In this document: positions 1,684 to 43,134 of the stretch, in pieces
How positions within the stretch are numbered: position 1 is the first letter of the stretch
Layout: every line of letters begins with the position of its first letter
DNA from: a virus
IMG/VR virus record: IMGVR_UViG_3300037762_000149
DNA: 48,298 nt
Reading direction: 5' to 3' (one strand)
Program-made: the position numbers and the translations under genes
The notes under the pieces: model-generated
Seen by the model: only the letters and a program-made list of their open reading frames with translations
The model's database searches: none
What the model was told of the DNA's origin: nothing

Positions 1684-1959
1684 ATGAGCGACTTCGACGA
1701 CAAGGAGCACCATCAGATCGTTGAGATCCGCTTCAAGGCCACGAACGCGGAGGCGAACGCCATCTGGCTTCGGGTGGTCAACAGTCCTGAGTGGCAGGAA
1801 TACGATGCGCTCGACGACTGCTTGCGATACGGCCACTGGCAGATCCACCTCGAAGGTGTCACGGAAGTGATGCGTCGGGCCGCTGACCGCAAGGTAGCAC
1901 TCAGGGCAAAGCTATCAGCGATGGTCATTCAGTTCGTGAAGGAGGCCGAACTCGAATGA
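1684..1959 (+). CDS. Hypothetical protein
   Basis: 91 aa. The stop overlaps the next start (ATGA at 1956-1959). No motif recognised. Confidence 0.6.
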   Translation: MSDFDDKEHHQIVEIRFKATNAEANAIWLRVVNSPEWQEYDALDDCLRYGHWQIHLEGVTEVMRRAADRKVALRAKLSAMVIQFVKEAELE

Positions 1960-2681
1960 GCATCCTCGCCATCACCCCCTACGCCGGCAGCGAGAATCTC
2001 GTCAGGATGACGGAGCGCATGCTGATGGCGTTCGATGGCTGTCCGACGATGGCCGAGGACGTCATCGCCACCTTCGCCGTCAACAACGCAGCCGTGCGGC
2101 CGGTGAACCATCCGCTCACGTGGCACGCCCACATGGACAAGAACGAGGGCTTCGGCGTGGCGGTGAACCTCGCGATCAAGCGCGAGATCTTCGACATGAA
2201 GAAGAGTGGCTTCCCGACCACGCACACGCACGTGCTGGTGCTGAACAACGACTTGGAGTTCCCTGAGCCGTCATGGCTCATGTCGCTGTTACGCCATCGC
2301 GAGGGTAACCTCGTTCTCTCGCCGTGCACGGACATCACGGCGACGAAGGTCGCCGTAGCGGAGTCCTCACGGGATCTTGATCCCGTGCGTTGGGATCAGG
2401 TCTCAGCGTTCTGCTGGCTCGTGCCGGTGACGACGATCGAGATGATCCGCAAGAAGTTCGGCTTCGAACTCTTCTCGCCCGAGTTCAGCAACTACGGCAG
2501 TGACGACGTCACGGGCGCCGTGCTGCGCAGGCTCGTCGGCCACAAGCCGTTCAAGGTCGTGCCGCGCAGCTTCGTCAAGCACAAGAAGGCGCAGACCGCC
2601 AACGAGCTTGGCGTGAAGGGTGGCACCAAGGAGCTGCTGCAGCGGATCGCCAACTGGAAGCGCATGAGGAGGCTGGCGTGA
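1956..2681 (+). CDS. Family-2-like (GT-A fold) glycosyltransferase
   Basis: 241 aa. Motifs NEGFGVAVNLAI, VLVLNNDLEF and NYGSDDV. ATGA and GTGA coupling to both neighbours. Confidence 0.8.
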   Translation: MSILAITPYAGSENLVRMTERMLMAFDGCPTMAEDVIATFAVNNAAVRPVNHPLTWHAHMDKNEGFGVAVNLAIKREIFDMKKSGFPTTHTHVLVLNNDLEFPEPSWLMSLLRHREGNLVLSPCTDITATKVAVAESSRDLDPVRWDQVSAFCWLVPVTTIEMIRKKFGFELFSPEFSNYGSDDVTGAVLRRLVGHKPFKVVPRSFVKHKKAQTANELGVKGGTKELLQRIANWKRMRRLA

Positions 2682-3244
2682 CCACGGACCCCCTGATGGC
2701 TCGCTTTCAGCGGCTCTGCGGCGAGGAGCATGACATCAGTGAGCACCTCGGGCTCCTGCGCGGACTCGCGTGCGACCCGGAAGTCGGCATGATCGTCGAG
2801 ATTGGGTTCCGCACCGGCGTCAGCGCGACCGCTCTGGCCACCGCCGACAAGCCGCTCCACTGCTACGACATCGAGCCGTGCGCCGTGGCACGTGGCAAGC
2901 TCGCTGCGCTCGCGCCGAGATTCCGATTCCACCAGGGCGACAGCCTCAAGGTCGAGATCCCGGTGTGCGAATTGCTTCATATCGACTCATTGCACACCTA
3001 CAAGCATCTCAGGGAAGAGCTGCGTATCCATGCGCGCTTCTGCCGCAAGTGGATCGCACTTCACGACACGGAGACGTTCGGCAAGATCGGCAAGGATGGC
3101 ACCAAGCCGGGCTTGGTCGCGGCGATCGATCAGTTCCTAAGCGAGAACGAAGGCGAATGGACACGTCACCTGCACCTGACGAACAACAACGGCATGACTC
3201 TGCTTCGGCGGCGCACAATGAGGCCACCGTCTACACCGCTTTGA
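2678..3244 (+). CDS. Class I SAM-dependent methyltransferase (Methyltransf_24/CmcI-like, sugar O-methyltransferase type)
   Basis: 188 aa. SAM motif I IVEIGFRTGVSATAL, then LHIDSLHTY and IALHDTE. Ends NNNGMTLLRRR, a typical family C-terminus. Confidence 0.8.
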   Translation: MTTDPLMARFQRLCGEEHDISEHLGLLRGLACDPEVGMIVEIGFRTGVSATALATADKPLHCYDIEPCAVARGKLAALAPRFRFHQGDSLKVEIPVCELLHIDSLHTYKHLREELRIHARFCRKWIALHDTETFGKIGKDGTKPGLVAAIDQFLSENEGEWTRHLHLTNNNGMTLLRRRTMRPPSTPL

Positions 3245-3837
3245 CGAAGGGCTACGACAAGCGGCCGATGAGCATCAGCGATGAGCCAAAAGTGCTCACC
3301 GAGGTGCGGATTGCGCCTGACGAGATCAAGGAAGGTCGCGAAGGGGTGCTGTGGAACCGCGAACAGAAGATCCTGCATCCGCCGAAGACCGGGCTCTGGT
3401 CGCTATACCTCGACGCCTCCTTCTCTCCGAAGGGTCCGGTGCGCGATTCGGTCGAGACGTGGCTCGAGAAGCACGATGCTGCGATGTTCAGGCATCCGTC
3501 GCGCACTTGCGCCTATGACGAGATCGATGAGTGCGTGAAGGTAGGCAAGCTCACGGCAGTTGAGGGTGAGAAGGCGCGTAGCACGATGATGCTGGCTGGC
3601 TTCCCTCGACACTTTGGCTTGTGGGCTTGCGGCGTGATCGCGCGCCGGGTGCACTGCAACGCACTTCAGATCTTCACGGCACCGCTCTGGTGGCAGTTCG
3701 TGAAGGACCTTCCGCGCGATCAGATTTGGCTGCCGTTCGTGTTGTGGAAGATCAAGGACTCACCGAAGCGCATCTACACCATCGATAAGGACATCTACAG
3801 CAATAAGCTGTTGTCGTTCAGGAGACATGGCTCATGA
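3157..3837 (+). CDS. DUF616-type glycosyltransferase-like protein
   Basis: N-terminal TVYTALTKGYDK resembles the conserved DUF616 vYTaifGgYD start. ATG 3157 is the only canonical start upstream of it, giving an 88-nt out-of-frame overlap with the methyltransferase. ATGA coupling at the 3' end. Confidence 0.7.
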   Translation: MDTSPAPDEQQRHDSASAAHNEATVYTALTKGYDKRPMSISDEPKVLTEVRIAPDEIKEGREGVLWNREQKILHPPKTGLWSLYLDASFSPKGPVRDSVETWLEKHDAAMFRHPSRTCAYDEIDECVKVGKLTAVEGEKARSTMMLAGFPRHFGLWACGVIARRVHCNALQIFTAPLWWQFVKDLPRDQIWLPFVLWKIKDSPKRIYTIDKDIYSNKLLSFRRHGS

Positions 3838-4355
3838 GTAAGTATGTCGAGCGTGGTGCCTACCACTACGCTGAGTTCGATGACTCGACGACGCCTTATC
3901 ACAAGCACGTGATGGATCTCGTGCAGAGGATCAATGTCTTCGTTGAAGGAGATAGGATCTTCGAAGTTGGAGCTGGTGAGGGATTGATCCTGCGCCAGCT
4001 ATCCAGGCTTGGTTTCAGTTGCCTGGGCTGCGACATCGATGGGCGAGCGGTCGAGCTGGCGGTCGAGAAGGGCAACGACGTGAGACTTGGCTCGATCGAG
4101 TCCTTTGAGGCTGGTAGCTACGACGCAGTCCTGATGTGCGACGTGCTCGAGCACGTGGAGGACTTCGACCGGACGATCGAGGCGGCGCAGAAGATGGCAA
4201 AGGTCGTGGTCGTGGCGGTGCCTGACCGCCTCGATCGGCACGCGGTGCGCCAGCACATCGTGGATGCCGTGAGCACGAAGTTCCTGAGCTGGGAGCTGCA
4301 GCACATCGAGCAGCGTCATGCACGCTGGTTGATGATCTTCAAGAACCACAAATGA
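3834..4355 (+). CDS. Class I SAM-dependent methyltransferase (Methyltransf_11/23 type)
   Basis: 173 aa. Motifs IFEVGAGEGL (motif I), CDIDGRAVELA and LMCDVLEHVEDF. Confidence 0.85.
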   Translation: MSKYVERGAYHYAEFDDSTTPYHKHVMDLVQRINVFVEGDRIFEVGAGEGLILRQLSRLGFSCLGCDIDGRAVELAVEKGNDVRLGSIESFEAGSYDAVLMCDVLEHVEDFDRTIEAAQKMAKVVVVAVPDRLDRHAVRQHIVDAVSTKFLSWELQHIEQRHARWLMIFKNHK

Positions 4356-5119
4356 CTGAGCTCACACTGGTCATGGCTGTGTATGGGCAGCCCTTGATGC
4401 TGGCGAAGCAAATAGAGATCATCGGTCACTACTCTGCTGACGTTCGATCAAAGCTAAACGTTGTCATCGTTGACGACTGTGGTGTGCCGAGCGTGTCCGT
4501 GTTGGATGTGGGCTTCACAGCGCCACTCGTGAAGAGCCTCAAGCTCTTCCGCGTCGACAAGGACATTCCATGGAACCAGCCTGGGGCCCGCAACCTTGGC
4601 ATGCATCACAGCGCTGGTTGGTGTCTGATGATCGACCCGGACATGGTGTTCGATGATCCGACGATGCGGCGCATGCTGCAAGCGGCCGAGAAGCTCACGC
4701 GTGGGCGCGCCGTGAAGTATGGGCTCAAGCACGAGAACAGTGGCAAGCTGGATATGACGAGCCCGAACACGTGGTTGCTGCACCGCGACGACTTCTTTGC
4801 GGTTGGCGGCTACGACGAGGACTTTGCTGGAGCGAAGGGTTGGTCTGACGTGCAGTTGCTGGACATCCTGCGCTCGTGCTACAAGGTGGAGAACAGGCCA
4901 GATCTGTGGGCTCACTTCTACGGCACCGACAGCATTCCCGACGCGATGGTGAAGTCGCTCGATCGCAGCACGGCTGCGAACCGGAAGAAGCGGGTCAAGA
5001 AGGTGGCACAGGCTCGCAAGGCTGGTGGCTGGGCGCGGTGGGCCAAGACCGAGAGGGTTGCCGCTGAGCGGCTCCGGTTCCCATGGACACAGCTCTTCCC
5101 GACACCCTCAAAGGATTGA
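4352..5119 (+). CDS. Family-2 glycosyltransferase
   Basis: 255 aa. Motifs VVIVDDCG, NQPGARNLG, MIDPDMVF (DxD) and GGYDEDF. Confidence 0.85.
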   Translation: MTELTLVMAVYGQPLMLAKQIEIIGHYSADVRSKLNVVIVDDCGVPSVSVLDVGFTAPLVKSLKLFRVDKDIPWNQPGARNLGMHHSAGWCLMIDPDMVFDDPTMRRMLQAAEKLTRGRAVKYGLKHENSGKLDMTSPNTWLLHRDDFFAVGGYDEDFAGAKGWSDVQLLDILRSCYKVENRPDLWAHFYGTDSIPDAMVKSLDRSTAANRKKRVKKVAQARKAGGWARWAKTERVAAERLRFPWTQLFPTPSKD

Positions 5120-6816
5120 GCCCTGAGGAGCTTCGCAACTATCGCCTCAAGGAAGAGGTCGATTACTACAAGACGGTTGAAGGGTTCCTCGACTTCGCTC
5201 GCGACTCGGGAGCTGCACCTGACGCCAAGCAGTATCCGCACGGGAAGGGTGCGAACGAGATCCTCAACTGGACGTGGCGACCGGATCCGCAGAGTGAGCG
5301 AGGGATCTTCACCTACAAGCTGCAGCTCTGGCCTCGTGGCTCATTCAAGAGTGCTGTCTTCAATGTAGCCTTGGTCTGCTGGGAGATCGCCAGGAACCCG
5401 AACATCCGCATCTGTGTCGCCTCGGAGACCGGCAAGCAGGCGAAGAAGTTCGTGAAGCAGGCGATGAAGATCATCGACTCGGAATGGTTCCGAGAGCGCT
5501 TCGGCGTGCACAGGGGCAAGGACTGGAAGGAGGGCTCTGGCGAGTTCACGAGTGCGCTGCGCACGATCAAGCACGCGAAGGAAGCGACGCTGCTGGCCGC
5601 TGGCTGTGGTGAAGTGTGGACCGGGTCGCACTGGGACCTGATCGTGATGGACGACGTGGTCAGCCAGGAGAACACGAAGACGATCGATGGCATCCAGTCC
5701 ACGTGGCACTGGTTTGGCGAGATGCTCGCCCAGCTCGATCCAGGCTGCCGCATCCTGATGATCGGCACGCTGCACCATTACGCCGATCTTTACTGCACGA
5801 TCCTCAAGACGAAGTCGATGCGCGATCTCTTCGAGACGAGCATCCACGGCTGGAAGAACCAAGACGGAACACTCTTCTTCCCAGGTCGACTCACTGAGGC
5901 GTTTGTTGCTCAGCAGAAAGCGCTATTGCCGCCGCGCCAGTTCGCCTGCTACTACGAGAACAAGCCGACGACCGATGAAGAAAAGATCTTCAAGGGCAAC
6001 TACTTCCGGGTGATCGAGGATCGCGACATCCCGCAGCACGTCTGGACCTACATCTTCACGGACTTTGCCTTCATCGCTGAGGAGAAGAAGAAGGGCAAGG
6101 CTGACCGCACGTGCTTCTGGGTCGTGTCGATGGACTGCAACCGCGTGGCCTACGTGCGTGACTTCTACGTTGGCCGCTGGAAGCCGAGCGACTCGGTTCG
6201 CATCGCGTGTGACCTGTGGAACCGCTACCAGACGATCGCCGTGCGAGGCATCGTCGTGGAGGACACGACGCACAAGGAGTTGCTGCAGTCGTTGTTCGAG
6301 GAGATCCGGCGTGAAACGTTCATTCGCCCGAAGCTCATCGCGGTGCCAGGCCGCAACCAGGAGATCAAGGAGATGCGCATCGAGGCGAGCGAACCTCGGT
6401 TCCGTGGTGGCCACATCTACTTCGCCCGCAGCCTGCGCGAGCAGCACCGCAAGTGGGCGCCGATGTTCAACGAGATGACCGAATGGCCCTACAGCCAGCA
6501 CGACGACATTCCGGATGCGATCTCGGACATCGACAAGCAGGACAAGGAAGGGCGCATGATCGCGCCGGCCCCGCCGGCCGGGTGGCGAATGGCGACATCG
6601 ATCAGGCAACAGCCGTCGATGGTCGACGGGAAGCTCAATCCCGACTATGGTTTCCCGGCGCGAGACAACATCCGGCGCGACCAGCAAGCAGGACTAGCAG
6701 GCAACCTATGGCTCAACCGATCGGCGGACGATCCGTCCAGCGAGCGCCCAGAAAGCCACCAAGACAGTTTCTTCCGGAGGCCACCGCAGCAGCCCAGGCT
6801 ACCGGGGAGATCCTGA
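5083..6816 (+). CDS. terL: Terminase large subunit
   Basis: 577 aa. Walker A-like LWPRGSFKS, Walker B WDLIVMDDVV, MIGTLHH, and nuclease acidic motifs YIFTDFAF and QHDDIPDAISD. Confidence 0.9.
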   Translation: MDTALPDTLKGLSPEELRNYRLKEEVDYYKTVEGFLDFARDSGAAPDAKQYPHGKGANEILNWTWRPDPQSERGIFTYKLQLWPRGSFKSAVFNVALVCWEIARNPNIRICVASETGKQAKKFVKQAMKIIDSEWFRERFGVHRGKDWKEGSGEFTSALRTIKHAKEATLLAAGCGEVWTGSHWDLIVMDDVVSQENTKTIDGIQSTWHWFGEMLAQLDPGCRILMIGTLHHYADLYCTILKTKSMRDLFETSIHGWKNQDGTLFFPGRLTEAFVAQQKALLPPRQFACYYENKPTTDEEKIFKGNYFRVIEDRDIPQHVWTYIFTDFAFIAEEKKKGKADRTCFWVVSMDCNRVAYVRDFYVGRWKPSDSVRIACDLWNRYQTIAVRGIVVEDTTHKELLQSLFEEIRRETFIRPKLIAVPGRNQEIKEMRIEASEPRFRGGHIYFARSLREQHRKWAPMFNEMTEWPYSQHDDIPDAISDIDKQDKEGRMIAPAPPAGWRMATSIRQQPSMVDGKLNPDYGFPARDNIRRDQQAGLAGNLWLNRSADDPSSERPESHQDSFFRRPPQQPRLPGRS

Positions 6817-7166
6817 CTCAGCGCTTTGGCGCTCAGTCGTGGATCGATCAGGTGGTGACTGCGGTGAAGAACGCGGTGCAGAACGGGATCGAGAACCTCA
6901 GTGGCACAGCGGTCAGCAGCAACTCTCACCCCGGCGATGGCTACCGATTCCAGGCGCGCACGAAGGACGAGCTCCTGCAGTCACAGCAGCTCGCCGCGAT
7001 CGCTCGAGAGGTCGGCCGCAAGGATCGCCCGATGGATCCAGCGGCGCAGTACCTCCAGTCGCTGCCGGTCGACGACAACGGGGTCATCATCATCCCTGGC
7101 GCAGGACGGCCGCATACCGCCCCCTCTTCTCAGAAGGCCAAGCAGCCTGAAGGCTGGATCCTCTGA
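6708..7166 (+). CDS. Hypothetical protein (start uncertain)
   Basis: The frame has good third-position GC from about 6820 onward. Candidate starts are ATG 6708 (109-nt overlap with terL), CTG 6813 (CTGA junction with the terL stop) and GTG 6852. The stop overlaps the next ATG (TGATG at 7164-7168). Confidence 0.45.
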   Translation: MAQPIGGRSVQRAPRKPPRQFLPEATAAAQATGEILTQRFGAQSWIDQVVTAVKNAVQNGIENLSGTAVSSNSHPGDGYRFQARTKDELLQSQQLAAIAREVGRKDRPMDPAAQYLQSLPVDDNGVIIIPGAGRPHTAPSSQKAKQPEGWIL

Positions 7167-7405
7167 TGGCCTTGGAGACCCCAGGCGACACGGTCCTAGT
7201 GCCGTGTCACGGCTGCAAACGAGATGTGATCTTGCCTGCAGGGCCGGTCCGCGCCAACATGCGCGCTGGTCGAGCGGTTGTCGCTTACTGCTCACGCAAG
7301 TGCGAACGTCGACATTCAGCCCGCGAGGGCGCCAAGCAACAGGAGAACAGCCTTGCTCGACATCATCTGTCCCGTGCCGATCAGCAACGTGGAGCTGGCG
7401 CCTGA
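7166..7405 (+). CDS. Small zinc-ribbon protein
   Basis: 79 aa. CHGC...CSRKC four-Cys arrangement. TGATG coupling to the upstream ORF. Confidence 0.5.
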   Translation: MALETPGDTVLVPCHGCKRDVILPAGPVRANMRAGRAVVAYCSRKCERRHSAREGAKQQENSLARHHLSRADQQRGAGA

Positions 7406-7970
7406 CGCCATCACCTCGATAGCGCAGAACACCGACGTTCCGTTCCGCCTCATCGTGATGGTCGACGGCGGGGTCCGGAAGGACTTCGAGCAGCTCGAGA
7501 CGTTCCTCGCCACCTTCGGTCACTCGTGGCAGCTCTTGCACAACAACCCGGCGGTCGGATTGAACCAGACGCTGCGCGAGGGTCTCGACGAGTGCACGCA
7601 GAAGCTGACGGCCATCATCGGTCCGGAGGTCCGTCTCGCCGACCCGCAGTGGTTCGGCAAGGTCCAGGCTGTGTTCCATCGCGATCCCATCTGTGGCATC
7701 GCGGACACGTGGCCGAACACGAAGAGCGCGACGCTGCACCCGGTGCGCCGGGCGCACAACAACCCGACGAGTGAAGGGTGCAGGCTCGTGGTCGTGCAGA
7801 CCGCCTTCGCGAAGAAGACGCCACCGTTCGGCTCGAACGATCCGATGACCTACTGGTCGCGATTCTGCATGAGCAATGGCGGGTCGTGCTGGGCGGTGCC
7901 AAGCGTTCGCTACAGCGAGGTGGAACACTCGCCTCACGAGCTCAGCCGCGTGACGGTCGCTCGTGGCTAG
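7353..7970 (+). CDS. GT-A-fold glycosyltransferase-like protein
   Basis: LLDIICPV...PFRLIVMVDGG and NPAVGLNQTLREGL resemble a GT2 N-terminal half. TTG 7353 is preceded by AGGAGA (7341-7346). The track start at 7278 is the alternative. Confidence 0.55.
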   Translation: MLDIICPVPISNVELAPDAITSIAQNTDVPFRLIVMVDGGVRKDFEQLETFLATFGHSWQLLHNNPAVGLNQTLREGLDECTQKLTAIIGPEVRLADPQWFGKVQAVFHRDPICGIADTWPNTKSATLHPVRRAHNNPTSEGCRLVVVQTAFAKKTPPFGSNDPMTYWSRFCMSNGGSCWAVPSVRYSEVEHSPHELSRVTVARG

Positions 7971-9303
7971 AGAGCTTGGAGTAGGGGTTGGAGGCAAGGT
8001 TCGCGTGGCGATCGCTGATGATTCGGGATTGGTGTATAGCGATGACTACCGTCTAGGTTGGAAGAAGGGCTTCGAGTCGCTAGGCTGCGAGGTCAAGATC
8101 TTCGACATCAGTGCGCTGCGTCGGATTGGGACCACTACTCCCTCTCCGTATCGAAGCCGGACGATGCCGGGGACAGCGAAGTCGATCGCCGATCAGATCG
8201 CCAAGTGGCGACCGCATCTGGTGTGGTGCCACCATGGACGTGCGGCCAGCAACGAGGAGTTCCTTCAGCGGTTGCGTCGAGATGGGATCAAGACCGCTGT
8301 CTACCTCTGCGATGAGCCCTACGAGACCGGCGAGACGGCGCGCTACAGCCCGCGCTTCCAGTTCGTGTTCACGATGGACGCCTGCACCGTCGAGATTCAC
8401 CGAAGATCGAGGAAGGACCGATCACACGTCTTCTACCTGCCGCCAGGAGTCGACGTCGACCACTTCGCCTACCGGAACTACGACCAGCGGACGACGTCGG
8501 CCTTCTTTCTCGGCAACGCGACCTTGGTGCCGCGTCTGGAGTGGCTAAAGCCTGTCGAGCGAGTCGTCGACGGGGCGGACATTCGCTTCTTCAAGACGGT
8601 GGCGAAGCGTGATTCGAAGTGGGTCGCGGTCAGCGATCATCCGCGCTTCTATGGTGGTTGCCTCGTAGGGCTCAACGTCCATCGCAATCCAGCCATCACC
8701 GCGGAGTGCTTCAAGAAGCGGGTGCTTGGTCGACCCAAGTCGATGCATGTGCCTGAGGGATTATCGCTCTGCGTTCAGATGCCGAAGAAGGAAGGAACTG
8801 GTTTCTGGAACGATGCAAACCTTCCGGCGTCGCATGTGAACCCTCGATTCCTCGAGATGGCATCCTGTGGCACCTGCGTCGTCAGCGATGACCATCGCAG
8901 CGAGCTGAGGCGAATGTTTCCGATGGCGCCAAGGGCGCAGACGCCGGAGCATTTCGTCGAGCTGATCCTGCACTACATCAAGAACCGCGACGAAGCGGAG
9001 AAGATCGGACGCGCATGCTCCTTCCTCATTTCAAAGCGGCACAGCTACATGCACCGAGCGGCCGAGGTGCTGATCCGAACTGGCTTGCAAACGTCGGACA
9101 GGGGCGGCCCGCTTTCCTCCTTGGGGGTGCCGGAGGATTGGTTGAGTCCTCAGGACTTATCGCTGCTGCTGGAGAGATCGTCATCGGATCCAACTGGACC
9201 CTCCGCGCGTTGGTCCCCAGCGTATGGCATGTCGTTGATCTCACTGTCTGGAAGTCCGAGCGAGAGCGACTCGCTCGATGTCCCGTCTCCCTGGTTGTCG
9301 TAG
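7963..9303 (+). CDS. CgeB-like glycosyltransferase (DUF3880 plus Glyco_trans_1_2-like)
   Basis: 446 aa. NPRFLEMASCGTCVVSDD...FLISKRHSYMHRAAEVL resembles the C-terminal signature of the CgeB/spore-maturation GT family. The last ~70 codons overlap the next gene out of frame. Confidence 0.7.
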   Translation: MARELGVGVGGKVRVAIADDSGLVYSDDYRLGWKKGFESLGCEVKIFDISALRRIGTTTPSPYRSRTMPGTAKSIADQIAKWRPHLVWCHHGRAASNEEFLQRLRRDGIKTAVYLCDEPYETGETARYSPRFQFVFTMDACTVEIHRRSRKDRSHVFYLPPGVDVDHFAYRNYDQRTTSAFFLGNATLVPRLEWLKPVERVVDGADIRFFKTVAKRDSKWVAVSDHPRFYGGCLVGLNVHRNPAITAECFKKRVLGRPKSMHVPEGLSLCVQMPKKEGTGFWNDANLPASHVNPRFLEMASCGTCVVSDDHRSELRRMFPMAPRAQTPEHFVELILHYIKNRDEAEKIGRACSFLISKRHSYMHRAAEVLIRTGLQTSDRGGPLSSLGVPEDWLSPQDLSLLLERSSSDPTGPSARWSPAYGMSLISLSGSPSESDSLDVPSPWLS

Positions 9304-10031
9304 CCAACAAGAAGATCTTCGGTGGAGGCCCCTACTCGGTCGCTGGCAGCAACGCCCTGCGAACGATCGGGCAGAGGAAGTGGCCGATCGCCGAGATCTC
9401 GATCGACATCCCTCGAGCGGTGAAGCGAGCGAAGAACGGGCAGATCCAGCGGCAGCACTCGCCCGGCTTCATGCCGAAGACGTTCCGCGACGCCTACCAC
9501 CCTGGTGGCAACTCGCTGTGCTACATGATCCAGACGGCGCATCTGATGGGCTGCGCGCCGATCTACTGCCTCGGCTTCACCCTCTCCGCAGGGACCGGAT
9601 ACTTCTTCGGTCTGGAGAACCCGGTCACCGGCAAGCGGAGCTTCTACAGCGACCCGGACCGTGCCATCGAGTGGCTTCGGTGGTATAGATCGCAGTGGCC
9701 TGGCAGAGCGATGCTCTGGCCAGGATGGTCAGGTCCGGTCTACAACGCGCTCGAGGTGGTCGATGAAACCGAAGTCAGAAGACTCATCGAAGGTCGCTCT
9801 GCCAACGGAGAGCGACACCAACCAGAAGCGTCTGGTGGAGTGGAGCCCCAAGATGCAGTTCGGGTCGGCGAAGATCGACACGAACCAAGTCCGCGAGGAG
9901 GGGATGGTGCTCAAGTCGAGCGACTTCGACGAGAACGACCGGATCAACCCGTTCACGCAGATGGAAACCAACCCGTGCGGCGGACACCGGCCCACCGGAA
10001 AGGGGGCCTGATCCGTGGGCGACCGCACTGA
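9015..10031 (+). CDS. MptE/DUF115-like (Maf-type) glycosyltransferase candidate
   Basis: GRPAFLLGGAGGL...IVIGSNW...VWHVVDL and GGNSLCYMIQTAHLMGCAPIYCLGFTLS resemble the DUF115 fold. Only ATG 9015 precedes the motif. The C-terminal ~85 aa are Arg/Gly/Pro-rich and overlap ORF 9763..10011. Confidence 0.6.
   Translation: MLLPHFKAAQLHAPSGRGADPNWLANVGQGRPAFLLGGAGGLVESSGLIAAAGEIVIGSNWTLRALVPSVWHVVDLTVWKSERERLARCPVSLVVVANKKIFGGGPYSVAGSNALRTIGQRKWPIAEISIDIPRAVKRAKNGQIQRQHSPGFMPKTFRDAYHPGGNSLCYMIQTAHLMGCAPIYCLGFTLSAGTGYFFGLENPVTGKRSFYSDPDRAIEWLRWYRSQWPGRAMLWPGWSGPVYNALEVVDETEVRRLIEGRSANGERHQPEASGGVEPQDAVRVGEDRHEPSPRGGDGAQVERLRRERPDQPVHADGNQPVRRTPAHRKGGLIRGRPH
9763..10011 (+). CDS. Hypothetical small protein upstream of portal
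   Basis: 82 aa from ATG 9763. It has very high third-position GC and a protein-like sequence (MKPKSEDSSKVALPTESDTNQKRLVEWSPKMQFG...), in contrast to the overlapping DUF115 tail frame. Confidence 0.55.
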   Translation: MKPKSEDSSKVALPTESDTNQKRLVEWSPKMQFGSAKIDTNQVREEGMVLKSSDFDENDRINPFTQMETNPCGGHRPTGKGA

Positions 10032-12417
10032 GCTCGGGAACACGCTCGCGCCGGCATCGCCGCCGAACCCGCGCACTGGCGTGATGACCCAGCCGCAGCG
10101 CGGCATGGGCACGTTCTCGAGGCGTCCCGACACTGAGCCGATCCGTGGTCCCTACACGCTGACCGAGGATGCGTTCGAAGAAGGCACGCAACCAGAGGCA
10201 TCGGCTCGGCTCTACGAGGAGAGCGTCGGGTTCAAGAACCTCGCGAAAGATCCGTTCGTAGTCGAGCAAGCCAAGAGCGCTGTGCAGTCAGGACTCAAGG
10301 ACGTGTTCAACGTCATGGAGTTCCTGCGGAACAAGTGGCTCATCCTCTACCGGCTGTATCGAGGGGAGTCGCTCGACACGTTCACCTACGGCCGCCAGCG
10401 GCTGCACAGCCCGGAACCATTCAAGGCGGTCGAGACGTTGCACCCGAAGATCTTGCGCACGCTGTTCGCCACACCGCGCTGGTTCAAGATGTATGGGGAG
10501 CACACCGAGCACGACGCGGCTGCAGAGATGCAGGAGATGCTCTGCCGAGACCATCTGACGAAGACGCGGTATCGGCCGAAGTCGAGCCGGTTCCTGCGGG
10601 ACGGCTTGATCTACGGGACGGCGATCCAGAAGACCTACTGGCGCCAAGAGCTTCGCGAGATGACCTACCGGACCGCGAAGCGGGTTCCGGATCCGAACTT
10701 CCCTGGCGCATCGACGCTGGAGCTCGACAAGCTCACGCGGCAAGAACTGGTCTTCGACGGGAACGAGGTGCAGAACGTCTCGATCTTCGACTTCCTCACG
10801 AGCCCGAACGCGAGCTCGGTCGACGAGGCGGAGTGGGCCGCTGATCGGAGCGGATGGCCCGACTACAAGGTCAAGGCGATGGGCGAGCTCGGGCACTGGT
10901 TCAACCTGGAGGCGCTCAAGGAGCATCCTGGCAGCAGTGACACGAGCTTCGGTGATGAGTTCAAAGAGAGGAAGAGTTATGCCTATGGCGTCTTCGATCC
11001 TCGACAAGCGAGCTGGGCGCCTCACATCCCGCACTACGAGGTGATCGACTGGTGGGGTCCGCTGGTCATCAAGAACGACCGCGGCAACTACCAGACGAAG
11101 CTGTGCAACGTGGTGATGGTCGAGCCGAAGGGCTTGCAGCTCGTCGTGCGCGTGACCGAGTGCCCGTTCTGGCACCAGCAGAAGCCCTACCAAGCGTGGC
11201 GCCCGATCAGCCTGGAGGACGAGTTCTACGGCATCGGCGTCTTGGAGATGATCGCGCGGCTGTCGATGGAGAAGGACATGAAGCGCAACCTGCTCATGGC
11301 CTCCACGCAGCTCGAGGGCAACCCGATGTGGCTCATCGCCGACGATGCGAACGTGCCGGCGGGCCAGATCATCATCGAGCCAGGGCATGCGATCCGTGTC
11401 CCGGACATCGAGAAGTCGATCGCCCCGCTGCACGTGCCGCAGGTGAGTGACGCAGCGTTGAAGGCCGAGAACGTGTTGACGGTCGATATCCGCGAGACGA
11501 CAGGCGCGACGTCGCCTTCGATGGGCGGCAAGGATCCCTTCTCCGAAGGCAAGACGGCGACGCAGCACATGAGTGAGATCGATGAGGCGAACCTGCGTCT
11601 CGTGCCGATGATCGAAGCGTGGGAGGAAGAAGTCGGCGTTCCGATGCTGGTTCAGATGTCCTGGAACAACCAGCAGTTCATGTCCTACGAGCGCGTCGTG
11701 CGCGATCTGGGACCGATGGGGCTGCGTTACCAGGACCGCTACAACATCCGCCCGCAGGACATCATTGGCCGCTTCCTCGCGATCCCGCTCGCCAGCCACA
11801 AGCTGACGACGAAGATGGCGAACACTCAGCAGCTAGTGAACATCCTTGACCGTGTTCCGATCTTGATTCAGACATATGGGCCTCAGGCCATCAATGGTCC
11901 GAAGCTGCTGGCGATGATCCTCGAGCACGGGTTCGACATCCGGAACGTGGACGAGATCGTGAAGGTGCCGAACGAGCTGAACCTGCTTACCCCGTCGCAG
12001 GAACACGAGCTCTGGTATCACGGCAACGTCCCGCCGCGGAAGCCGGACGACAACGACATGCGGCACATCCTCGGCCACCTCGAGGAGATGTCGTCGACGC
12101 GCTTCAAGGAGCTGGAGAAGCGAAGCCCAGGCACGGCTGCGCGCGCGAAGGCTCACACGATGGAGCACATGGCCAAGCTGGAACAGAAGCAGATGTTCCA
12201 GGAGGACATGCTGCAGCAGTTCGCCCAGGTCGGTGCGCAGATGGGCTTGATGAACGGCCCAGGCGGCGGTGGCGGCGAGTCGCCGATCGCTGGCGCGGCC
12301 GGGCCAGATCAGGAGCCTGGATCGCCGAAGGTCAGGAGCAACGAGAACGAGCGTGGCGAGGGTGGTGGCGCGAAGAGCGAGGGCATGCGCAACGCTCCGA
12401 ACGGAGGCGCCCAATGA
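10015..12417 (+). CDS. Portal (head-tail connector) protein
   Basis: 800 aa, positioned between the terL block and scaffold/MCP. FLRNKWLILYRLYRGES...PEPFKAVETLHPKILRTLF resembles T7-type connector proteins. Gly-rich basic C-tail. The GTG start could be later (ATG 10084). Confidence 0.85.
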   Translation: MGDRTELGNTLAPASPPNPRTGVMTQPQRGMGTFSRRPDTEPIRGPYTLTEDAFEEGTQPEASARLYEESVGFKNLAKDPFVVEQAKSAVQSGLKDVFNVMEFLRNKWLILYRLYRGESLDTFTYGRQRLHSPEPFKAVETLHPKILRTLFATPRWFKMYGEHTEHDAAAEMQEMLCRDHLTKTRYRPKSSRFLRDGLIYGTAIQKTYWRQELREMTYRTAKRVPDPNFPGASTLELDKLTRQELVFDGNEVQNVSIFDFLTSPNASSVDEAEWAADRSGWPDYKVKAMGELGHWFNLEALKEHPGSSDTSFGDEFKERKSYAYGVFDPRQASWAPHIPHYEVIDWWGPLVIKNDRGNYQTKLCNVVMVEPKGLQLVVRVTECPFWHQQKPYQAWRPISLEDEFYGIGVLEMIARLSMEKDMKRNLLMASTQLEGNPMWLIADDANVPAGQIIIEPGHAIRVPDIEKSIAPLHVPQVSDAALKAENVLTVDIRETTGATSPSMGGKDPFSEGKTATQHMSEIDEANLRLVPMIEAWEEEVGVPMLVQMSWNNQQFMSYERVVRDLGPMGLRYQDRYNIRPQDIIGRFLAIPLASHKLTTKMANTQQLVNILDRVPILIQTYGPQAINGPKLLAMILEHGFDIRNVDEIVKVPNELNLLTPSQEHELWYHGNVPPRKPDDNDMRHILGHLEEMSSTRFKELEKRSPGTAARAKAHTMEHMAKLEQKQMFQEDMLQQFAQVGAQMGLMNGPGGGGGESPIAGAAGPDQEPGSPKVRSNENERGEGGGAKSEGMRNAPNGGAQ

Positions 12418-14253: not shown

Positions 14254-15282
14254 ATGGCCTTCGTGGCAAACACCGCAGTCCTCAACTCGTTCGATGTCGG
14301 AACGGGTAACCGCGAGGATCTCCTCGACATCATCACCAACATCTCGCCGATGGACACGCTCTTTCTGAGCGGGTTCGAGAAGGTTCCGGCGAACAACATC
14401 AGCCACGAATGGCTGGTCGACATCCTCGCCGCGTTCGGCGATCCCGATGTGGGCAACGCGGACGTGCAGGCCACGCCCGAGGGTTCGGACGCCACGTTCG
14501 ATCCACTCGTGCCGCGCAAGCGCCTCTGCAACCTGACCCACATCATCCGTCGCACGTTCGACGTGTCCGACACGCAGCGCGACATCAACACCGCGGGGAT
14601 CAGGGACGAATACGTCTACCAGCTCCGCAAGGCGACGATGGAGCTTGCCCGCTTCATCGAGTTCGCGCTGGTGCACAGCGAGCGCCAGAGCCAAACGGCT
14701 CAGGGCAACAGTGGCGGCGTGCTGCCGCGCAAGATGGACGGCTTCTACGCCTTCGCGGCGGCCTCCGACCCGACCTGCGCGACGACGCTCGGTCTCAGCG
14801 CCGACGAGATGGGGACCGTGACCACGGTGGTCGGCAGCTCGCCCGAAGACTGCATCACGGAGTGCATCCTGAACGAGCACCTCCAGGCGATGTGGGAGAA
14901 GGGCGCAATGACCGACACGCTGTGGGCCAACGCCGCACAGAAGCGGTCGTTGAGCAATCTCACGCTCAGCCCCAACAGCAACGTCCGCTACAACATCCCC
15001 GTCGCGGATCGGACGGTCATCAACACGGTCGACTTCTACCAGAGCGACTTCGGCACGCAGCGGATCTACCTGCACCGCTACCAGCGCAACGACCGCATCT
15101 CGATGGCGGAAGCCAACAAGCTACGCATCGCCGTGCTGCGTCCCGTGCTGGCGGTGGAGCTCGCGAAGATCGGCTCCAGCACGAAGGGCATGGTGGAGTG
15201 GGAGGGCACGCTCGAGGTGCTCGCGCCCAACGCGATCGGCTACATCGACGGACTCTGCACCGGCGTCAGCGGGTGCCCGTGA
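14254..15282 (+). CDS. Major capsid protein (HK97 fold, SU10/DUF5309-like)
   Basis: 342 aa. The N-terminal NREDLLDIITNISPMDTLFLS motif is characteristic of this capsid family, and the gene follows the scaffold. Confidence 0.9.
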   Translation: MAFVANTAVLNSFDVGTGNREDLLDIITNISPMDTLFLSGFEKVPANNISHEWLVDILAAFGDPDVGNADVQATPEGSDATFDPLVPRKRLCNLTHIIRRTFDVSDTQRDINTAGIRDEYVYQLRKATMELARFIEFALVHSERQSQTAQGNSGGVLPRKMDGFYAFAAASDPTCATTLGLSADEMGTVTTVVGSSPEDCITECILNEHLQAMWEKGAMTDTLWANAAQKRSLSNLTLSPNSNVRYNIPVADRTVINTVDFYQSDFGTQRIYLHRYQRNDRISMAEANKLRIAVLRPVLAVELAKIGSSTKGMVEWEGTLEVLAPNAIGYIDGLCTGVSGCP

Positions 15283-25567: not shown

Positions 25568-27013
25568 ATGGCACGCACCAGCAAGACGAAGATCGGTGAC
25601 AGCGGTGAGTCGAGCGATCGCATGATGCGTGCGGCGGCCAGCGGTGCCGAAGCCGTGTCGCAGGCGAGAGGACAGCTTCTCGGTCAGTATCGAGAGGGTG
25701 CCGAGAACGCGAGGAACCTCAGCCAGACCGCCTCCAGCCTCGTGCAGCAGCACGAAGACCGGAAGACGCAGAAGGAGCAGTTCGCGAGCAAGATGGAGCT
25801 CGAGTCCGCGCAGATGGCCCAGCAGGAGTCGCAGTTCAGCCGTGGTCAAGCGCAGCAGGAGTCACAGTTCAGCCGTGGCCTACAGCAGCGGGAGAGCGAG
25901 ACCGAGCTCGAGGCGGCGAAGGCCGGGTTAGAACCCAACCAAGGCGGTCAGGGCGAAGGCGGCCAGGGCGGCGCGATGGCCGGCGCGCAGGCTGGCGCTG
26001 AGGGTGGAGCTCGCGCTGCTCAGCTCGAAGCCGAGATGGCGAAAGGCCAGGGCCAGCCGACACTTGGCCCACTCGATCCCGAGTCGCAGCAACGACTCAG
26101 CGACACGACGACGCAGCCGCTGGAGATGGACAGCCAGGGACGCTGGCGTCCGACCGCCGCGCGCAAGTCCGCTCAGGAGAGAGCACAGAAGCGTGAGGAC
26201 TTCCAGGCCGACACGGAGCGCATCCGTGCGATGGCTTACGAGCAGCAAGTGTCCGTGGCGGCGCAGAAGGCATTGATGGCCGGCGACATGGAAGCCTACG
26301 AGGAGCACGCGCAGATCCTCGCCAACGTGCCGAACGACCGGCAGAAGCAATACGACAGACTGATGACTGGTAAGGTTCCAGAGTCCGATTGGTCGGATAT
26401 CGCCAAGGAGGCGGCTGACAACCCAGAGCCCGGCCTCGCCGAAGACATCAAGGCTCATAACTTCTCACCGCGCGTGCAGGCGTTCATGCGGGCCCAGGTC
26501 GGCAAAGGTTCGCTGAAGGCGATCGTCGGCAGTCTTGGTGATACAACGAAGCTCAAGATCGACTGGACCAACCCGGTGATGGTGCAGTTCCAACAGATGG
26601 TGCAGACCGACGCTGAGTTCATGCGCGCGAACCCGGCGCTCGGCCAGCTCGGGTTCATCAAGAGCACCGACGACAAGATGCGCTTCCTCAACGTGACGGC
26701 GGCGGCCAAGATCATGATGGGCATGGGCCGCGCTCCGAGGGGAAAAGCCTCCGGAGGGATGGTGCCGGCGACGGAGGGTGGCGGCGGGGCTTCAGCCGGT
26801 GGTGCACCGGCTGAGTTGCCTCCTGGGAGCACGCAGGTGCCGGGCCGGTCCGAGGGCGCAGCGGCCGTCCGAGGCGCCAGGGCGGGCGGTGCGACGCCGC
26901 AGCAGGCGTTGCAGGCTGGTCAGCGGGTGGCGCCAACTGGACGTCCGACGCCTGAGGAGGAGGGCTACGGCAGCGAGTTGAGGCGGCGAGCAGGTCAGCG
27001 CTACCCACGATGA
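25568..27013 (+). CDS. Internal virion protein candidate (low-complexity, Q/E/G/A-rich)
   Basis: 481 aa from ATG 25568, just after the upstream stop. Contains a 33-bp tandem duplication. ATGA coupling to the giant gene. Confidence 0.65.
   Translation: MARTSKTKIGDSGESSDRMMRAAASGAEAVSQARGQLLGQYREGAENARNLSQTASSLVQQHEDRKTQKEQFASKMELESAQMAQQESQFSRGQAQQESQFSRGLQQRESETELEAAKAGLEPNQGGQGEGGQGGAMAGAQAGAEGGARAAQLEAEMAKGQGQPTLGPLDPESQQRLSDTTTQPLEMDSQGRWRPTAARKSAQERAQKREDFQADTERIRAMAYEQQVSVAAQKALMAGDMEAYEEHAQILANVPNDRQKQYDRLMTGKVPESDWSDIAKEAADNPEPGLAEDIKAHNFSPRVQAFMRAQVGKGSLKAIVGSLGDTTKLKIDWTNPVMVQFQQMVQTDAEFMRANPALGQLGFIKSTDDKMRFLNVTAAAKIMMGMGRAPRGKASGGMVPATEGGGGASAGGAPAELPPGSTQVPGRSEGAAAVRGARAGGATPQQALQAGQRVAPTGRPTPEEEGYGSELRRRAGQRYPR
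25820..25878 (+). repeat. 33-bp tandem duplication inside CDS
   Basis: cagcaggagtc[g/a]cagttcagccgtgg occurs at 25820-25845 and 25853-25878, encoding QQESQFSRG twice. Confidence 0.8.
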
Positions 27014-30000
27014 GCGGCCAAGCCCCACAGTTTCTGGCGCCCGAGACCGACTACCTGCTCGAACGGAAGAAGGCGGCGATCGGGTCAGCGATCACGGCGT
27101 CGAGCGGTGGCGATCCGCTTGTCGACCCGCCCGCGTTCGGCTACCCGATGTCGATGCAGGTGGAGGTCGAACGCCGGCTGACGCTGGAGCTCGACCGCAA
27201 CCAGAAGGTCAACGCGGTCTTCTCGGATCCGAACAGCGGCTGGGGCGACTTCCAGTCGTTCATGGACGGCGTCTTCGACAAATACAAAGCGCAGAACGAT
27301 GACCAAGTCATCAAGGTGCCTAAGGACGAGCAGGAAGCCATCAAGCAGATGCAGCAGATGCGCCCTGTGCAGGTGGACCCGAACGAGCTCGCCAACATCA
27401 AGCAGATGGTGGTGCAGAAGCTGATCCCTTCACTCAAGGCCGCCGATCCGCGTTTCGACTTCTGGAGCGATCCGCGCACGAAGAACTACGCGGACTGGCT
27501 GAACCGCGAATCTGGCGCCGGGACCGCTGGCTTCATGCAGAGCGGTGAGCAGGAAGCCTCGATCCCAAACGAGGTCTTTGGCATCGATACACACATCCCA
27601 GGTCTTGGTCGTGGGGCTGTAGCAGCGTGGCAGGGGATCGAGGGCATTGGGTCAGCGGCGACATCGGTCGTGCATGGACTCTGGGATCTCGGTCGCCAGT
27701 CGATCAACGCGATGGGCGGCCCGGACATCGGGCCCAGCTATCCGACGAACTACATCGAGACCGAGGACGGCCAGCTCGTTTCCAACGGAGGGAAGGCGCC
27801 GTCGATCATGGACGGGATCGTGATGACCTGGGCCTACGCGACGAACCAGAACATCGAGAAGTTTGCTGCGCAGGCAGGACGCGCCCAGGAGTGGGAGCTG
27901 GCGAACCGCGCGGGCCTTGGCGGGATCGCCACCTCCGTCAGTCGTCTCGGTGGCGAGCTTGTTGGCATGGCGCCGGGGTTCGGTGCCGCAGCAAAGCTCG
28001 GCGAGATGACGCTCGGCAAGCTGACGCAGAAGGGTCTGCAGTCGCTCGGCACGTTGCGGCTGGCGAAGGGAGCGCAGCAGAGCGATCGCGCCTTGAAGAT
28101 CATCGCCGCGATGGGGAAGGGCATCGGGCAGGCGAGCGGCATGGCGGCCTACGAGTCAGCGACCCAGGGCCGGGTGGAGGGCTACGGGGCCAGCTATCTG
28201 CACGGTTTGATGATGGCGCCGGTGCTGATGACGCTCGGCGCTTTGGGCAAGAAGACTGAGTGGTTTGCCGCGAACAGGATGGGCATGCCGGGAGCGGCGT
28301 CTCGTGCGATCGCTGGCGCGATGGAAGGTGTGGGCTTCGGCGCGATCGAGACGACGATCCCTGGCTTGCTGCCGTCTGCGTGGGGCTTCATCCGCGACCC
28401 GAACCAGTCGACCTGGGAAGCCTACGCGAAGAATATGCTCGCCTTCTCCATGGTGAAGATGGGGACAGGCCACACGGCGATCGCGTCACCGGAGCAGATG
28501 CAGATCCGCCGCGGGATCGGGCGCGCGTCGTTCGCCGAGAAGGTGGCTCGTGGTGAGGCGACGCCGGAGGAGATCAGCAAGGCACCGATCGCAGACGAGG
28601 CCAAGCTCCGCGATCTCGGCGAGGCGTCAATGCGCTCGCGTGAAGCTCAGACCGTTGGGGAGCGGTCGGCAGCGACGAAGCGGCAGCGCGAGATCGAGTC
28701 GGAGATGGACGTCGAAGAGTTCGGGCAACGACCACCGGCTGAGAAGGAAGTCGAGCAGGCGATGGAGGATGGTGGCGTCGAGAAGCTCTCGCGTGAGAGC
28801 GCCGAGCGCTCCAAGAAGTGGGAGAGTATCGTCTCGGAGACGAAGGAGCTGATCGCCAAGCAGCGTGATCCAGAGAAGCGGCTCACCGACGTCGAGCGCA
28901 AGCGGCTGATCGAGCTGATGGACATCACAAGCCGTGAGGCGCGCAAGGACGTGCTCGAGGGCCACCGGCGAATCCAGGAACACGCTCGAGAGCAGAGCGA
29001 GCAGGAGATGGAACGGTCACGTGAGGTGATCGAGGCCGGGGACGTCGCTGAAGCACTGCGTAGTGGCCGGCAGGTGACGGACATCCGCGCCGAGCGTACG
29101 AAGAAACTGGCCGAGATGGGGATCACGATCCCGGAGCGCAAGGAGCTCGTCGAGCAGCGGGCAAAGGAGGCGGAGCCGGGCGGCCAGGACCCCGAGATCG
29201 CGGCCATGGCGAAAAAGCTGGGGGTCTCCTACGAGGATATGCTGAAGGAGATGGGGGAAGAAGCGCCTACTCCGGCTTCACTTAAGCAAAACGTTCCACG
29301 TGAAACTATCGTTTCTGGCACTCCACACGACGTGATTGAGCCTGTGGAGATCGCTGATCTCGCCGCCCGCGTCGGAGACACCCGCACGCCAGCCGGCGCG
29401 CGAGCCGGGCCGCAGTCGCTGCAGGCGCAGCCGACGCAGCAGATCGAGGCGACACCTGGCACCGAGCAGGTGATGGCCCGCGACATCTACTCCGAGATGG
29501 AAGGGCGGCCGGGCAGCAAGGGCTTCCGCATCCCGCTCACCAGCATCCGCGTCGGCGGCGAAGCGCCTGACGTTGTGCGTGTGCCGATCCGTGGCGGGAA
29601 GATCGGCGGCAGGAACGTGCTCGGCGTCTTCAAGGCGTTCGAGAACCTGATCCGCACGAAGGAGGGACGAGATCTCGCCGTAGCCGCGCATGAGTGGTCG
29701 CATGCGATGCAGCGGCATACGATCAGCGACGCTGGTGGCAAAGACTTCATCTCTAAGTCCAAAGCGCAAGTTGAATCAGCGCTCAGCGGTCCTGATGGAC
29801 CAGCCATCGGCTTCGAGATGCGAGAGACGCTCAAGGACTACCCTGGCAGCGAAAACATGCCGAAGTGGTTGCAGTGGGCTGAGACGTGGGCCGAGTGGCA
29901 TGCTCGCAACCTGCTTGGTGAAGTCGGTCTCGACAAGAAGCTGCCGGCGATCTCGAGTTACATGCGGCAGTGGTTGGCTTCTCCGCAGCAAGCTGCGTTG

Positions 30001-37605: not shown

Positions 37606-37624
37606 CGATCTCTCCTGAACGAAT

Positions 37625-37666
37625 ACGGCCCGTCACCCTGACCGGGGAAACGGGCCGTTGCTTTTT
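37625..37666 (+). other. 9-bp hairpin followed by a T-run on the + strand, between two - strand genes
   Basis: acggcccgt (37625-37633) pairs with acgggccgt (37650-37658), followed by tgcttttt. The orientation suits a + strand terminator although the flanking genes are on the - strand. Confidence 0.4.
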
Positions 37667-37683
37667 GGTGAGTGATGAGCGAG

Positions 37684-38451: not shown

Positions 38452-38482
38452 GTCGCTTCTCGCTTGTTGGTGAGTGGTCAGT

Positions 38483-39329: not shown

Positions 39330-39443
39330 GAGTGAAAAGAGGGCCCCCGGAAACTTCGGGTTTGTTGGGGAAGAAGGAGAGTCAAGTTTTTACGTCCGTT
39401 ACGTCATGCTGGCGTAAGCAGGACAACGGAGGCCCATGAGTGC

Positions 39444-39698: not shown

Positions 39699-39708
39699 GG
39701 CTATGGCT

Positions 39709-43109: not shown

Positions 43110-43134
43110 CGCTCGGTGAACGTCTTCGAGAGGT

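Follow-up and report, generated by a model that had tools for sequence, protein, structure and literature searches.

The virus genome recorded in IMG/VR as IMGVR_UViG_3300037762_000149, analysed here as one window of 48,298 nucleotides (nt), carries at 1956-10031 an island of eight glycan-enzyme genes placed around the large terminase gene terL, on the + strand that also bears terL and the portal gene. Our analysis gives about an even chance that this island decorates virion proteins by cytoplasmic glycosylation, a function that we infer from its genes. The island comprises three GT2-like glycosyltransferases (A, E and G), a TOD1/MUCI70 protein (C), two S-adenosylmethionine (SAM) methyltransferases (B and D), a CgeB-type protein (H) and an MptE/DUF115-like protein (I), and these eight genes amount to about 6.2 kb, 13% of the genome. 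The open reading frames (ORFs) of the region and its borders are the following, with product lengths in amino acids (aa) and GC3 denoting the GC content at third codon positions.

940-1680, + strand: probable terS, the small terminase subunit, bounding the variable arm on the left.
1684-1959, + strand: ORF of 91 aa with no assigned function, taken from the ORF list; its last 4 nt are shared with the start of A.
1956-2681, + strand: A, divergent GT2-like (GT-A) glycosyltransferase of 241 aa, whose homologs carry PF00535.
2678-3244, + strand: B, accessory class-I SAM methyltransferase (Methyltransf_24); PF13578, 30.9 bits against a cut-off of 26.3.
3157-3837, + strand: C, accessory TOD1/MUCI70 (former DUF616) glycosyltransferase-like protein; PF04765 in orthologs.
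3834-4355, + strand: D, class-I SAM methyltransferase (Methyltransf_23/11, UbiG/MftM-like); PF13489 and PF08241.
4352-5119, + strand: E, GT2 glycosyltransferase with a canonical DXD motif, directly upstream of terL; assigned from ortholog profiles and motifs.
5083-6816, + strand: large terminase subunit terL; phrog_38, E 1.5e-70.
6864-7166, + strand: F, conserved small protein of 100-116 aa between terL and G, with a frame-3 GC3 signal.
7353-7970, + strand: G, divergent GT2-like (GT-A) protein of 205 aa, conserved core; PF00535-bearing homologs.
7963-9303, + strand: H, 446 aa, with a CgeB-type Glyco_trans_1_2 C-terminal domain; PF13524.
9015-10031, + strand: I, MptE/DUF115-like and sialyltransferase-like protein; core at residues 1-255, tail variable and of low complexity.
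9763-10011, + strand: J, small ORF of 82 aa in frame 1 (frame-1 GC3 0.83-0.92), overlapping the tail of I.
10015-12417, + strand: SU10-type portal, right border of the island; phrog_1216 and PF23899, with an N-terminus that is conserved starting at codon 1.

Gene calls obtained from GC3 frame tracking and ortholog alignments reproduced the eight genes on the + strand, with the starts proposed in an earlier note made from the sequence alone, and bore out its statement that they share their strand with terL and the portal gene and follow each other closely. Short overlaps of 4-8 nt occur at the A/B, C/D, D/E and G/H junctions and longer ones at B/C (88 nt), E/terL (37 nt) and H/I (289 nt, out of frame), which makes translational coupling across the island plausible. 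Promoter-like and terminator-like sites were not above the shuffled expectation. The earlier note had also located the island directly after the early genes and before the portal gene; the right border stood, but on the left the ORF at 940-1680, probably terS, precedes the first arm, which therefore sits between terS and terL. The product of this ORF shows weak helix-turn-helix and RepB-like matches at residues 82-119, a coiled-coil middle and an acidic C-terminus, and the ORF is kept upstream of the island in relatives. The 91-aa ORF at 1684-1959 was found only in the near-identical relative L005 and gave no family match. The earlier note had not mentioned two further small ORFs of the island, namely F (6864-7166) and J (9763-10011). 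A transmembrane-grade hydrophobic segment was found in 0 island proteins (maximum KD19 = 1.50), and the island enzymes are predicted to be soluble.

Relatives of this phage were gathered in two IMG/VR scans and one scan of genomes, which yielded about 30 distinct contigs once duplicates had been set aside. The island is conserved among them, as F-G-H-I were retained between terL and the portal gene in every relative covering the region, down to identities of 53-55% in terL and ~60% in the portal. This retention ties the function of the right arm to the virion module in which it is embedded. F is present in all relatives, G in all 11 further relatives (11/11), and H is the most conserved gene of the island, at 56-76% identity in relatives, a level similar to that of terL. 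Variation affects the terS-terL arm, except for E, which stands immediately upstream of terL in almost every relative, including 10 of the 11 further ones. B is present in only some relatives and often absent, C is missing from L011 and L014, and the alleles of D are swapped, with only 39% identity in relatives whose terL is 98-99% identical. A methyltransferase lies immediately upstream of E in most of the relatives that bear a left arm, as well as in phage S20, with an additional ORF between the two genes in L053 and L041. The slot between terS and terL contains a GT9 protein (heptosyltransferase family) and an FkbM/RfbT-like methyltransferase in one of the more distant relatives (L053:1866-4114), a GT9 protein and another Methyltransf_23 in a second (L057:3737-5331) and an FkbM methyltransferase in a third (L041:3091-3786), and L022 holds the same families in an altered order. 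HNH endonuclease genes occupy the slot of B in two contigs (L002:7725-8120 and L014:8357-8773; PF13392, E 1e-12 to 1e-14), and such homing endonucleases could be what drives the exchange of cassettes within the variable arm. Since F-G-H-I remain constant while the content between terS and terL varies, the island can be described, from the comparison of these contigs, as a fixed arm joined to a swappable tailoring arm. The families of A, G and I are confined to this phage clade, with 131, 76 and 175 clusters, respectively, in 5.8 billion proteins.

By analogy, the swapping of left-arm enzymes resembles what is known of surface-glycan loci under diversifying selection. The variable cassette would also suit the tracking of host serotypes, as could be expected if the island served to remodel the host envelope, its enzymes acting late on lipid-linked O-antigen, capsule or lipooligosaccharide intermediates. 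The receptor would thereby change on infected cells and debris, and loss of progeny or superinfection would be prevented. Against this stands the right arm, which is as strongly conserved as the structural genes across deep divergence.

All eight assignments to folds and families were upheld, though not equally strongly: those of B, D and H are firm and the others were reached through orthologs or fold. D exceeds by far the cut-offs of PF13489 (52.1 bits vs 27) and PF08241 (49 bits vs 21.2), with UbiG (1.4e-10) and MftM (1.7e-5) as matches in NCBIfam. For E, the window copy reached 17.1 bits with the GT2 profile, below the cut-off of 27.3, but orthologs lie above the PF10111/PF00535 cut-offs (33.0 and 28.1 bits in L053, 29.1 in L041, 30.1 and 26.5 in S20), and the ortholog profile matched the GT2 enzyme PglI (9jma_A) with an E of 3.1e-6. 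The motifs VDD (D41-D42), DPD (D95-x-D97) and GGYDED (E156) are invariant in 8 orthologs and supply both the DXD motif and the acidic (ED) motif downstream of it, and E can be assigned to the GT2 enzymes. The assignment of C relies on PF04765, detected in 5 of 6 orthologs (best E 2.6e-6; window copy 16.6 bits vs a cut-off of 21.4) in a match confined to positions 185-310 of the 314 in the profile, its C-terminal part, together with a match to the glycosyltransferase family phrog_26101 (E 1.7e-6).

A and G are more divergent. The window protein of A had no Pfam match of its own; homologs 43-49% identical to it (P0185, P0186, P0198 and P0223) carry PF00535 in precomputed Pfam annotations, and one copy from a metagenome-assembled genome (MAG) bears the name glycosyltransferase. 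G matched PF00535 (E 0.032) and AglG (E 0.014) only weakly, and PF00535 is carried by homologs with 43-57% identity (P0292, P0322, P0323 and P0324). Sequence motifs in A include an invariant NND at the DXD position and YGSDD, and G shows a GT2-like N-terminal strand and a VDGG motif, its DXD position reading xAD/IDD. Both proteins thus look GT2-like, possibly with atypical catalytic centres. Comparisons with hhalign among the shallow profiles of A, G and E gave nothing significant, and a PDB profile search with A returned only spurious TAL-effector repeats.

H matched PF13524 with 61.5 bits (cut-off 25), its residues 291-370 aligning with positions 62-143 of the 144 in the profile, and the FLEMAACGTLVV motif is invariant. 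No family match was found for the N-terminal 290 residues, a profile search of PDB gave no sequence relative, and tblastn of H found no match among 50,697 phage records. The relationship of CgeB to spore-crust glycosylation had been used as an argument for protein-surface glycosylation; the domain match stands, while the argument built on it is weak, resting on ~80 residues of a common C-terminal domain. These ~80 of 446 residues, in a phage context and not one of sporulation, point to a shared domain only and not to orthology with CgeB. The small proteins F and J gave no family match. J lies within a longer frame-1 ORF (9661-10011), which most relatives retain at 91-117 aa, and the substitutions across 9763-10031, where J meets the tail of I, showed no frame preference. 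We considered J as the real product of 9661-10031 in place of I and rejected it, given that both ORFs are kept in relatives and that the Arg/Pro-rich tail of I (about 9780-10031), which overlaps J, is merely unconserved.

Gene I deserves separate consideration. A start near 9300, the choice of gene callers, was discarded because the upstream frame 3 is open and strongly conserved in every relative. Conservation of the N-terminal 95 residues of I extends to all relatives and to independent gene calls, the longer of which open with 'ML.PDF..', equivalent to the ATG at 9015. In the stretch 9111-9299 substitutions were mostly synonymous in the frame of I and mostly non-synonymous in that of H, with example counts of 11:6 (I frame) vs 2:14 (H frame) and 13:11 vs 4:22. 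The counts indicate that the I frame is the selected one in this stretch, so that the last ~62 codons of H (9111-9303) look like an overprinted by-product. Frame conservation, substitution counts and the longer gene calls agree that 9015, the start proposed originally, is right. The 289-nt out-of-frame overlap of H and I (9015-9303) is kept in all relatives; a fusion of both proteins by -1 frameshifting was also considered, with nothing in its favour.

The full-length protein was modelled by AlphaFold2 with a pLDDT of 91.6 and a pTM of 0.91, as against a pLDDT of 79.9 and no structural neighbour for the truncated form of 160 residues. PDB profile searches with truncated I gave nothing meaningful, and an exhaustive HMMER search with its profile returned a narrow family of 44 representatives at E <=0.001, P0275 and P0276 being weak matches. 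With full-length I, Foldseek retrieved 16 matches below 1e-3 from BFVD, five of them phage proteins named MptE-like (E 3e-5 to 6e-5, prob 1.0), and it also matched a DUF115 protein of ChoanoV1; the E values of phage MptE-like matches ran from 7e-6 to 1e-4. The PDB match of highest probability was the sialyltransferase-family structure CstII (1ro8_A; prob 0.84, E 0.064), at a TM of 0.44-0.46 that remains below 0.5. By hhalign, I aligned over 155 columns with CcrColossus gp126, annotated as an alpha-2,3-sialyltransferase (94.4%, E 8e-8), and tblastn of I gave no match among the phage records. The reading of I as an MptE/DUF115 protein therefore appears right at the level of the predicted fold, and the homology to gp126 supports it; the sequence profile does not, as neither 9015-10031 nor 9015-9800 matched PF01973 even at E 10, and only relatives reached sub-threshold values (25.9 bits for P0276 and 13 bits for P0018, cut-off 34.6).

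The fold of I is common to the Maf flagellin glycosyltransferases, and from this resemblance a protein acceptor had originally been argued. The fold-level similarity was recovered here, and it does not imply specificity for a protein acceptor. It is also what could be expected if the island acted on a non-virion acceptor, such as flagellin, pilin, an S-layer protein, the phage proteins F or J, or a small molecule. F and J are indeed conserved small proteins without an assigned role inside the island, and D resembles the small-molecule/oligosaccharide methyltransferases UbiG and MftM. We found no positive evidence for any acceptor of this kind, F and J are not Ser/Thr-rich, and a host-protein target is hard to square with six to eight enzymes kept beside the packaging and portal genes in about 30 relatives, so we regard a non-virion acceptor as quite unlikely.

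Further information comes from what the rest of the genome lacks. Pfam and PHROG scans of all larger ORFs, together with precomputed Pfam annotations on identical contigs, detected no genes for nucleotide-sugar synthesis, Wzx/Wzy, Gtr or a priming phosphoglycosyltransferase genome-wide, and likewise no ThyS-like hydroxymethylase, TET/5mYOX or C5 DNA methyltransferase, with the reservation that many ORFs had no match at all. An integrase, a lysogeny module, a DNA polymerase and nucleotide-metabolism genes were not detected either in the complete genome. The scans thus agree with the original observation that nucleotide-sugar genes, Wzx/Wzy, Gtr and integrase are missing. These results bear on two other readings of the island, the first of them that the glycan is built on a modified base of the phage DNA, allowing evasion of restriction. 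Phage GT-A/GT-B enzymes do glycosylate DNA containing 5-hydroxymethylcytosine or 5-hydroxymethyluracil, some of them encoded near terminase genes (bioRxiv 10.1101/2023.12.21.572611), and our island flanks the packaging enzyme. However, such pathways cluster with ThyS-like hydroxymethylases or with a C5-methyltransferase plus 5mYOX/TET (bioRxiv 10.1101/2023.12.21.572611), partners that are not among the genes detected, just as DNA polymerase and nucleotide-metabolism genes are not. Moreover, B and D are of O-methyltransferase or small-molecule types and not DNA methyltransferases, and no MptE-like, CgeB-type or TOD1/MUCI70 family is described among the DNA glycosyltransferases of that study (bioRxiv 10.1101/2023.12.21.572611), making DNA hypermodification very improbable.

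The second is the remodelling of the host envelope. Enzymes typical of envelope glycans include GT2 and GT9 proteins, FkbM methyltransferases of the RfbT-like kind and sialyltransferase-like proteins, and PglI, the nearest solved relative of E, works on an undecaprenyl-PP-linked glycan. On the other hand, no GtrA/B/C, flippase or polymerase was detected, and with no membrane segment in the island proteins and neither integrase nor Gtr found, the island does not correspond to a serotype-converting Gtr module. The missing lysogeny functions and the location with terL and the portal gene, and not with the early genes, which leaves little time for turnover of the surface, weigh in the same direction. 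Taken together, we judge envelope remodelling to be unlikely, and the remaining probability falls to some other function.

The lack of detected export, priming and sugar-synthesis genes fits a direct transfer to a soluble cytoplasmic acceptor, and we favour the view that the island encodes a soluble stepwise pathway made alongside the head-assembly proteins. From host nucleotide sugars and SAM this pathway would build a methylated oligosaccharide, attached to an acceptor in the cytoplasm that is most likely one or several of the virion proteins. In this scheme the fixed right arm (G, H, I and perhaps F) would lay down a conserved inner glycan, which could hold a sugar of the nonulosonic-acid type because I is sialyltransferase-like. 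The variable arm (A, C and E with B and D, or GT9 and FkbM proteins in relatives) would then extend and O-methylate this glycan, and related phages would bear differing glycan types. The scheme builds on the enzyme families found, their linkage, conservation and solubility, the missing partners for export and base modification, and positional parallels with mycobacteriophage Corndog; what we infer from them is which acceptor and sugars are used and in which order the steps follow.

Several points weigh against virion glycosylation. For this phage, as for the islands of S20 and CcrColossus, it is a prediction from sequence. The late and virion proteins searched held no Ser/Thr-rich acceptor tract and no acceptor was identified, and the capsid protein is without a C-terminal extension. 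No homology to mycobacteriophage glycosyltransferases was found except for a 45-residue motif match between E and Corndog gp37. Lipid-linked glycans of the envelope, assembled on the inner side of the membrane with the help of host flippases, are likewise products of soluble GT2, GT9 and MptE-like enzymes, and the enzyme set by itself is therefore compatible with a host-envelope target as well.

One feature of the virion might be connected with such a pathway. The major capsid protein (14254-15282) is 85-96% identical in relatives (L002, L008, L020, L036-L058) in which terL is 53-80%, the portal 60-78% and the scaffold 38-62% identical, an unusually strong conservation. It is a matter of speculation whether it is linked to recognition by glycosylation enzymes. 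This clade of uncultured aquatic podophages, and convergently S20-like and phiCbK-like phages, might build modular phage 'glycotypes', with G, H and I placing an inner glycan on the unusually conserved capsid protein and the hot-swappable terS-terL cassette diversifying and methylating the outer sugars. Virion glycosylation would then count as widespread, modular and evolvable among phages with Gram-negative hosts, and as no peculiarity of mycobacteriophages. We put this forward tentatively, as an idea somewhat unlikely to hold in full.

As regards the phage itself, an identical stretch of 127 bp at 1-127 and 48172-48298 forms an exact direct terminal repeat, and because the same bases open and close the window it represents a complete, circularly assembled genome of ~48.2 kb. 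It belongs to an SU10-like podophage, with portal (PF23899, SU10_portal), major capsid protein (PF17236) and adaptor (PF24175) of SU10 families, late genes on the + strand from about 39 to 33410 and replication genes on the - strand from 34498 to 46986. The nearest cultured phages show protein identities of <=26% for terL and about 30-34% for the capsid protein, and megablast of the island against the 50,697 phage records found no near-identical DNA. No tRNA genes were found in the genome. The host is probably a Gram-negative aquatic bacterium; scanning genome contigs for H found only three phage contigs, binned into MAGs, which gave no clue to the host. Outside the island, an ORF upstream of the late operon (322-606, + strand) encodes a 94-aa product with PF24729, Acb2_Tad1_hairpin (precomputed Pfam, identical contig), a candidate anti-CBASS/anti-Thoeris nucleotide sponge. 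The late region also encodes a 1900-aa protein with PF18857, LPD38 (27010-32712, + strand), and a 1035-aa protein with primase-like and helicase-like PHROG matches is found at 34498-37605 (- strand).

If the island acts on the virion, the trait would extend to a large environmental clade of podophages (>100 clusters of proteins grouped at 90% identity, from JGI, ENA, Logan and Tara data). The MptE/sialyltransferase-like, CgeB-type and TOD1/MUCI70 families would join the enzymes of phage protein glycosylation, and a fixed core combined with a swappable cassette could give differing surface glycans on near-identical capsids. This would matter for virion stability, for adsorption to particles or mucus and for the way grazers recognise virions, as well as for engineering phage surfaces. 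The island enzymes would also offer sets of glycosyltransferases and methyltransferases that are soluble and independent of membrane machinery, and cultured phages with related islands exist, namely CcrColossus and its relatives and S20/SI1.

Phage-encoded glycosylation cassettes in a structural operon are already known. In the literature consulted, demonstrated cases of phage-encoded virion glycosylation are limited to a few mycobacteriophages. Virion proteins of Corndog, Che8 and Myrna are reported to be glycosylated, and glycosylation of the Corndog capsid to depend on gp38 as an essential protein (PMC12363180, citing Freeman et al. 2023), the glycans being found at the C-termini of capsid and tail-tube subunits (PMC12619734, citing Freeman 2023). 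Corndog carries a methyltransferase (gp35) and three glycosyltransferases (gp36-38) in a block of head genes just upstream of the major head protein gp41. Our island likewise places glycosyltransferases and methyltransferases inside the head block of the structural strand, and shares with the Corndog and other mycobacteriophage cassettes the soluble enzymes, the absence of export genes and the presumed use of host sugar donors. It differs in having eight genes (six core) instead of four, in its MptE-like, CgeB-type and TOD1/MUCI70 families and its fixed and variable arms around terL, in a capsid protein that ends without a C-terminal extension, and in its background, an SU10-like podophage with a probably Gram-negative aquatic host as opposed to actinobacterial siphophages and myophages. 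Comparison of the island proteins with Corndog gp35-39 by blastp and phmmer recovered only E and gp37, over 45 residues (E 6e-5 in a database of 21 proteins), and no mycobacteriophage was matched by tblastn of E and H against the 50,697 phage records. The earlier note had called the island far larger than known cassettes of one to three genes, which was too strong in view of the four genes of Corndog and of the 13 glycosyltransferases reported for cyanomyovirus S-SCSM2R (PMC12801897).

Islands of related composition occur in the late modules of two unrelated cultured phages. The siphophage 'Tetraselmis viridis virus' S20 (NC_020840) holds nine genes at 5421-11690, between the capsid genes and head closure, with a methyltransferase and GT2 pair, two sialyltransferase/MptE-like proteins, a GT-D protein, an FkbM methyltransferase and another glycosyltransferase; the pair is orthologous to D-E, E being 30% identical over 216 aa. 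In CcrColossus the island gp126-131 (6992-11545) directly follows the tail genes and begins with the I homolog gp126, followed by GT-A, methyltransferase and GT9 genes, and jumbo-phage records of Caulobacter (13), Brevundimonas (5) and Xanthomonas (2) contain an I-like gene as well. These islands differ from ours in their siphophage or jumbo-phage backgrounds, in their positions within the late module and in having no CgeB-type H. Literature searches on DUF115/MptE-like phage proteins, the S20 island, the CcrColossus island and the phiCbK sialyltransferase found no relevant paper.

Cytoplasmic multi-enzyme glycosylation of virion proteins, independent of host secretion, is also a property of giant viruses, among them chlorovirus PBCV-1 (A064R and others) and Mimivirus with its gene clusters. 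Their pathways combine GT-A transferases with sugar O-methyltransferase activity, and many of these viruses also encode nucleotide-sugar synthesis. Unlike our phage they are viruses of eukaryotes, and for our island such a function is a proposal. With Maf (DUF115) proteins and the GT42 enzyme CstII, I shares the fold, and the GGxGxL and GxNS motifs and the GF(T/D)L strand align, but it has GGAGGL instead of the usual GGGPSL, gives no PF01973 match and lacks the flanking Maf domains. The DNA glycosylation systems of phages (T4 alpha/beta-GT and those linked to 5mYOX or ThyS) likewise employ phage glycosyltransferases, encoded in some cases several in a row or close to the terminase, and differ in their glycosyltransferase families and in their hydroxymethylase, TET or C5-methyltransferase partners, which were not detected here. 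Compared with all these systems, what is new in the present island is the phage lineage, a size twice that of the Corndog cassette, the enzyme families and the two-arm design around terL, together with the conserved 289-nt out-of-frame overlap of its two most conserved genes.

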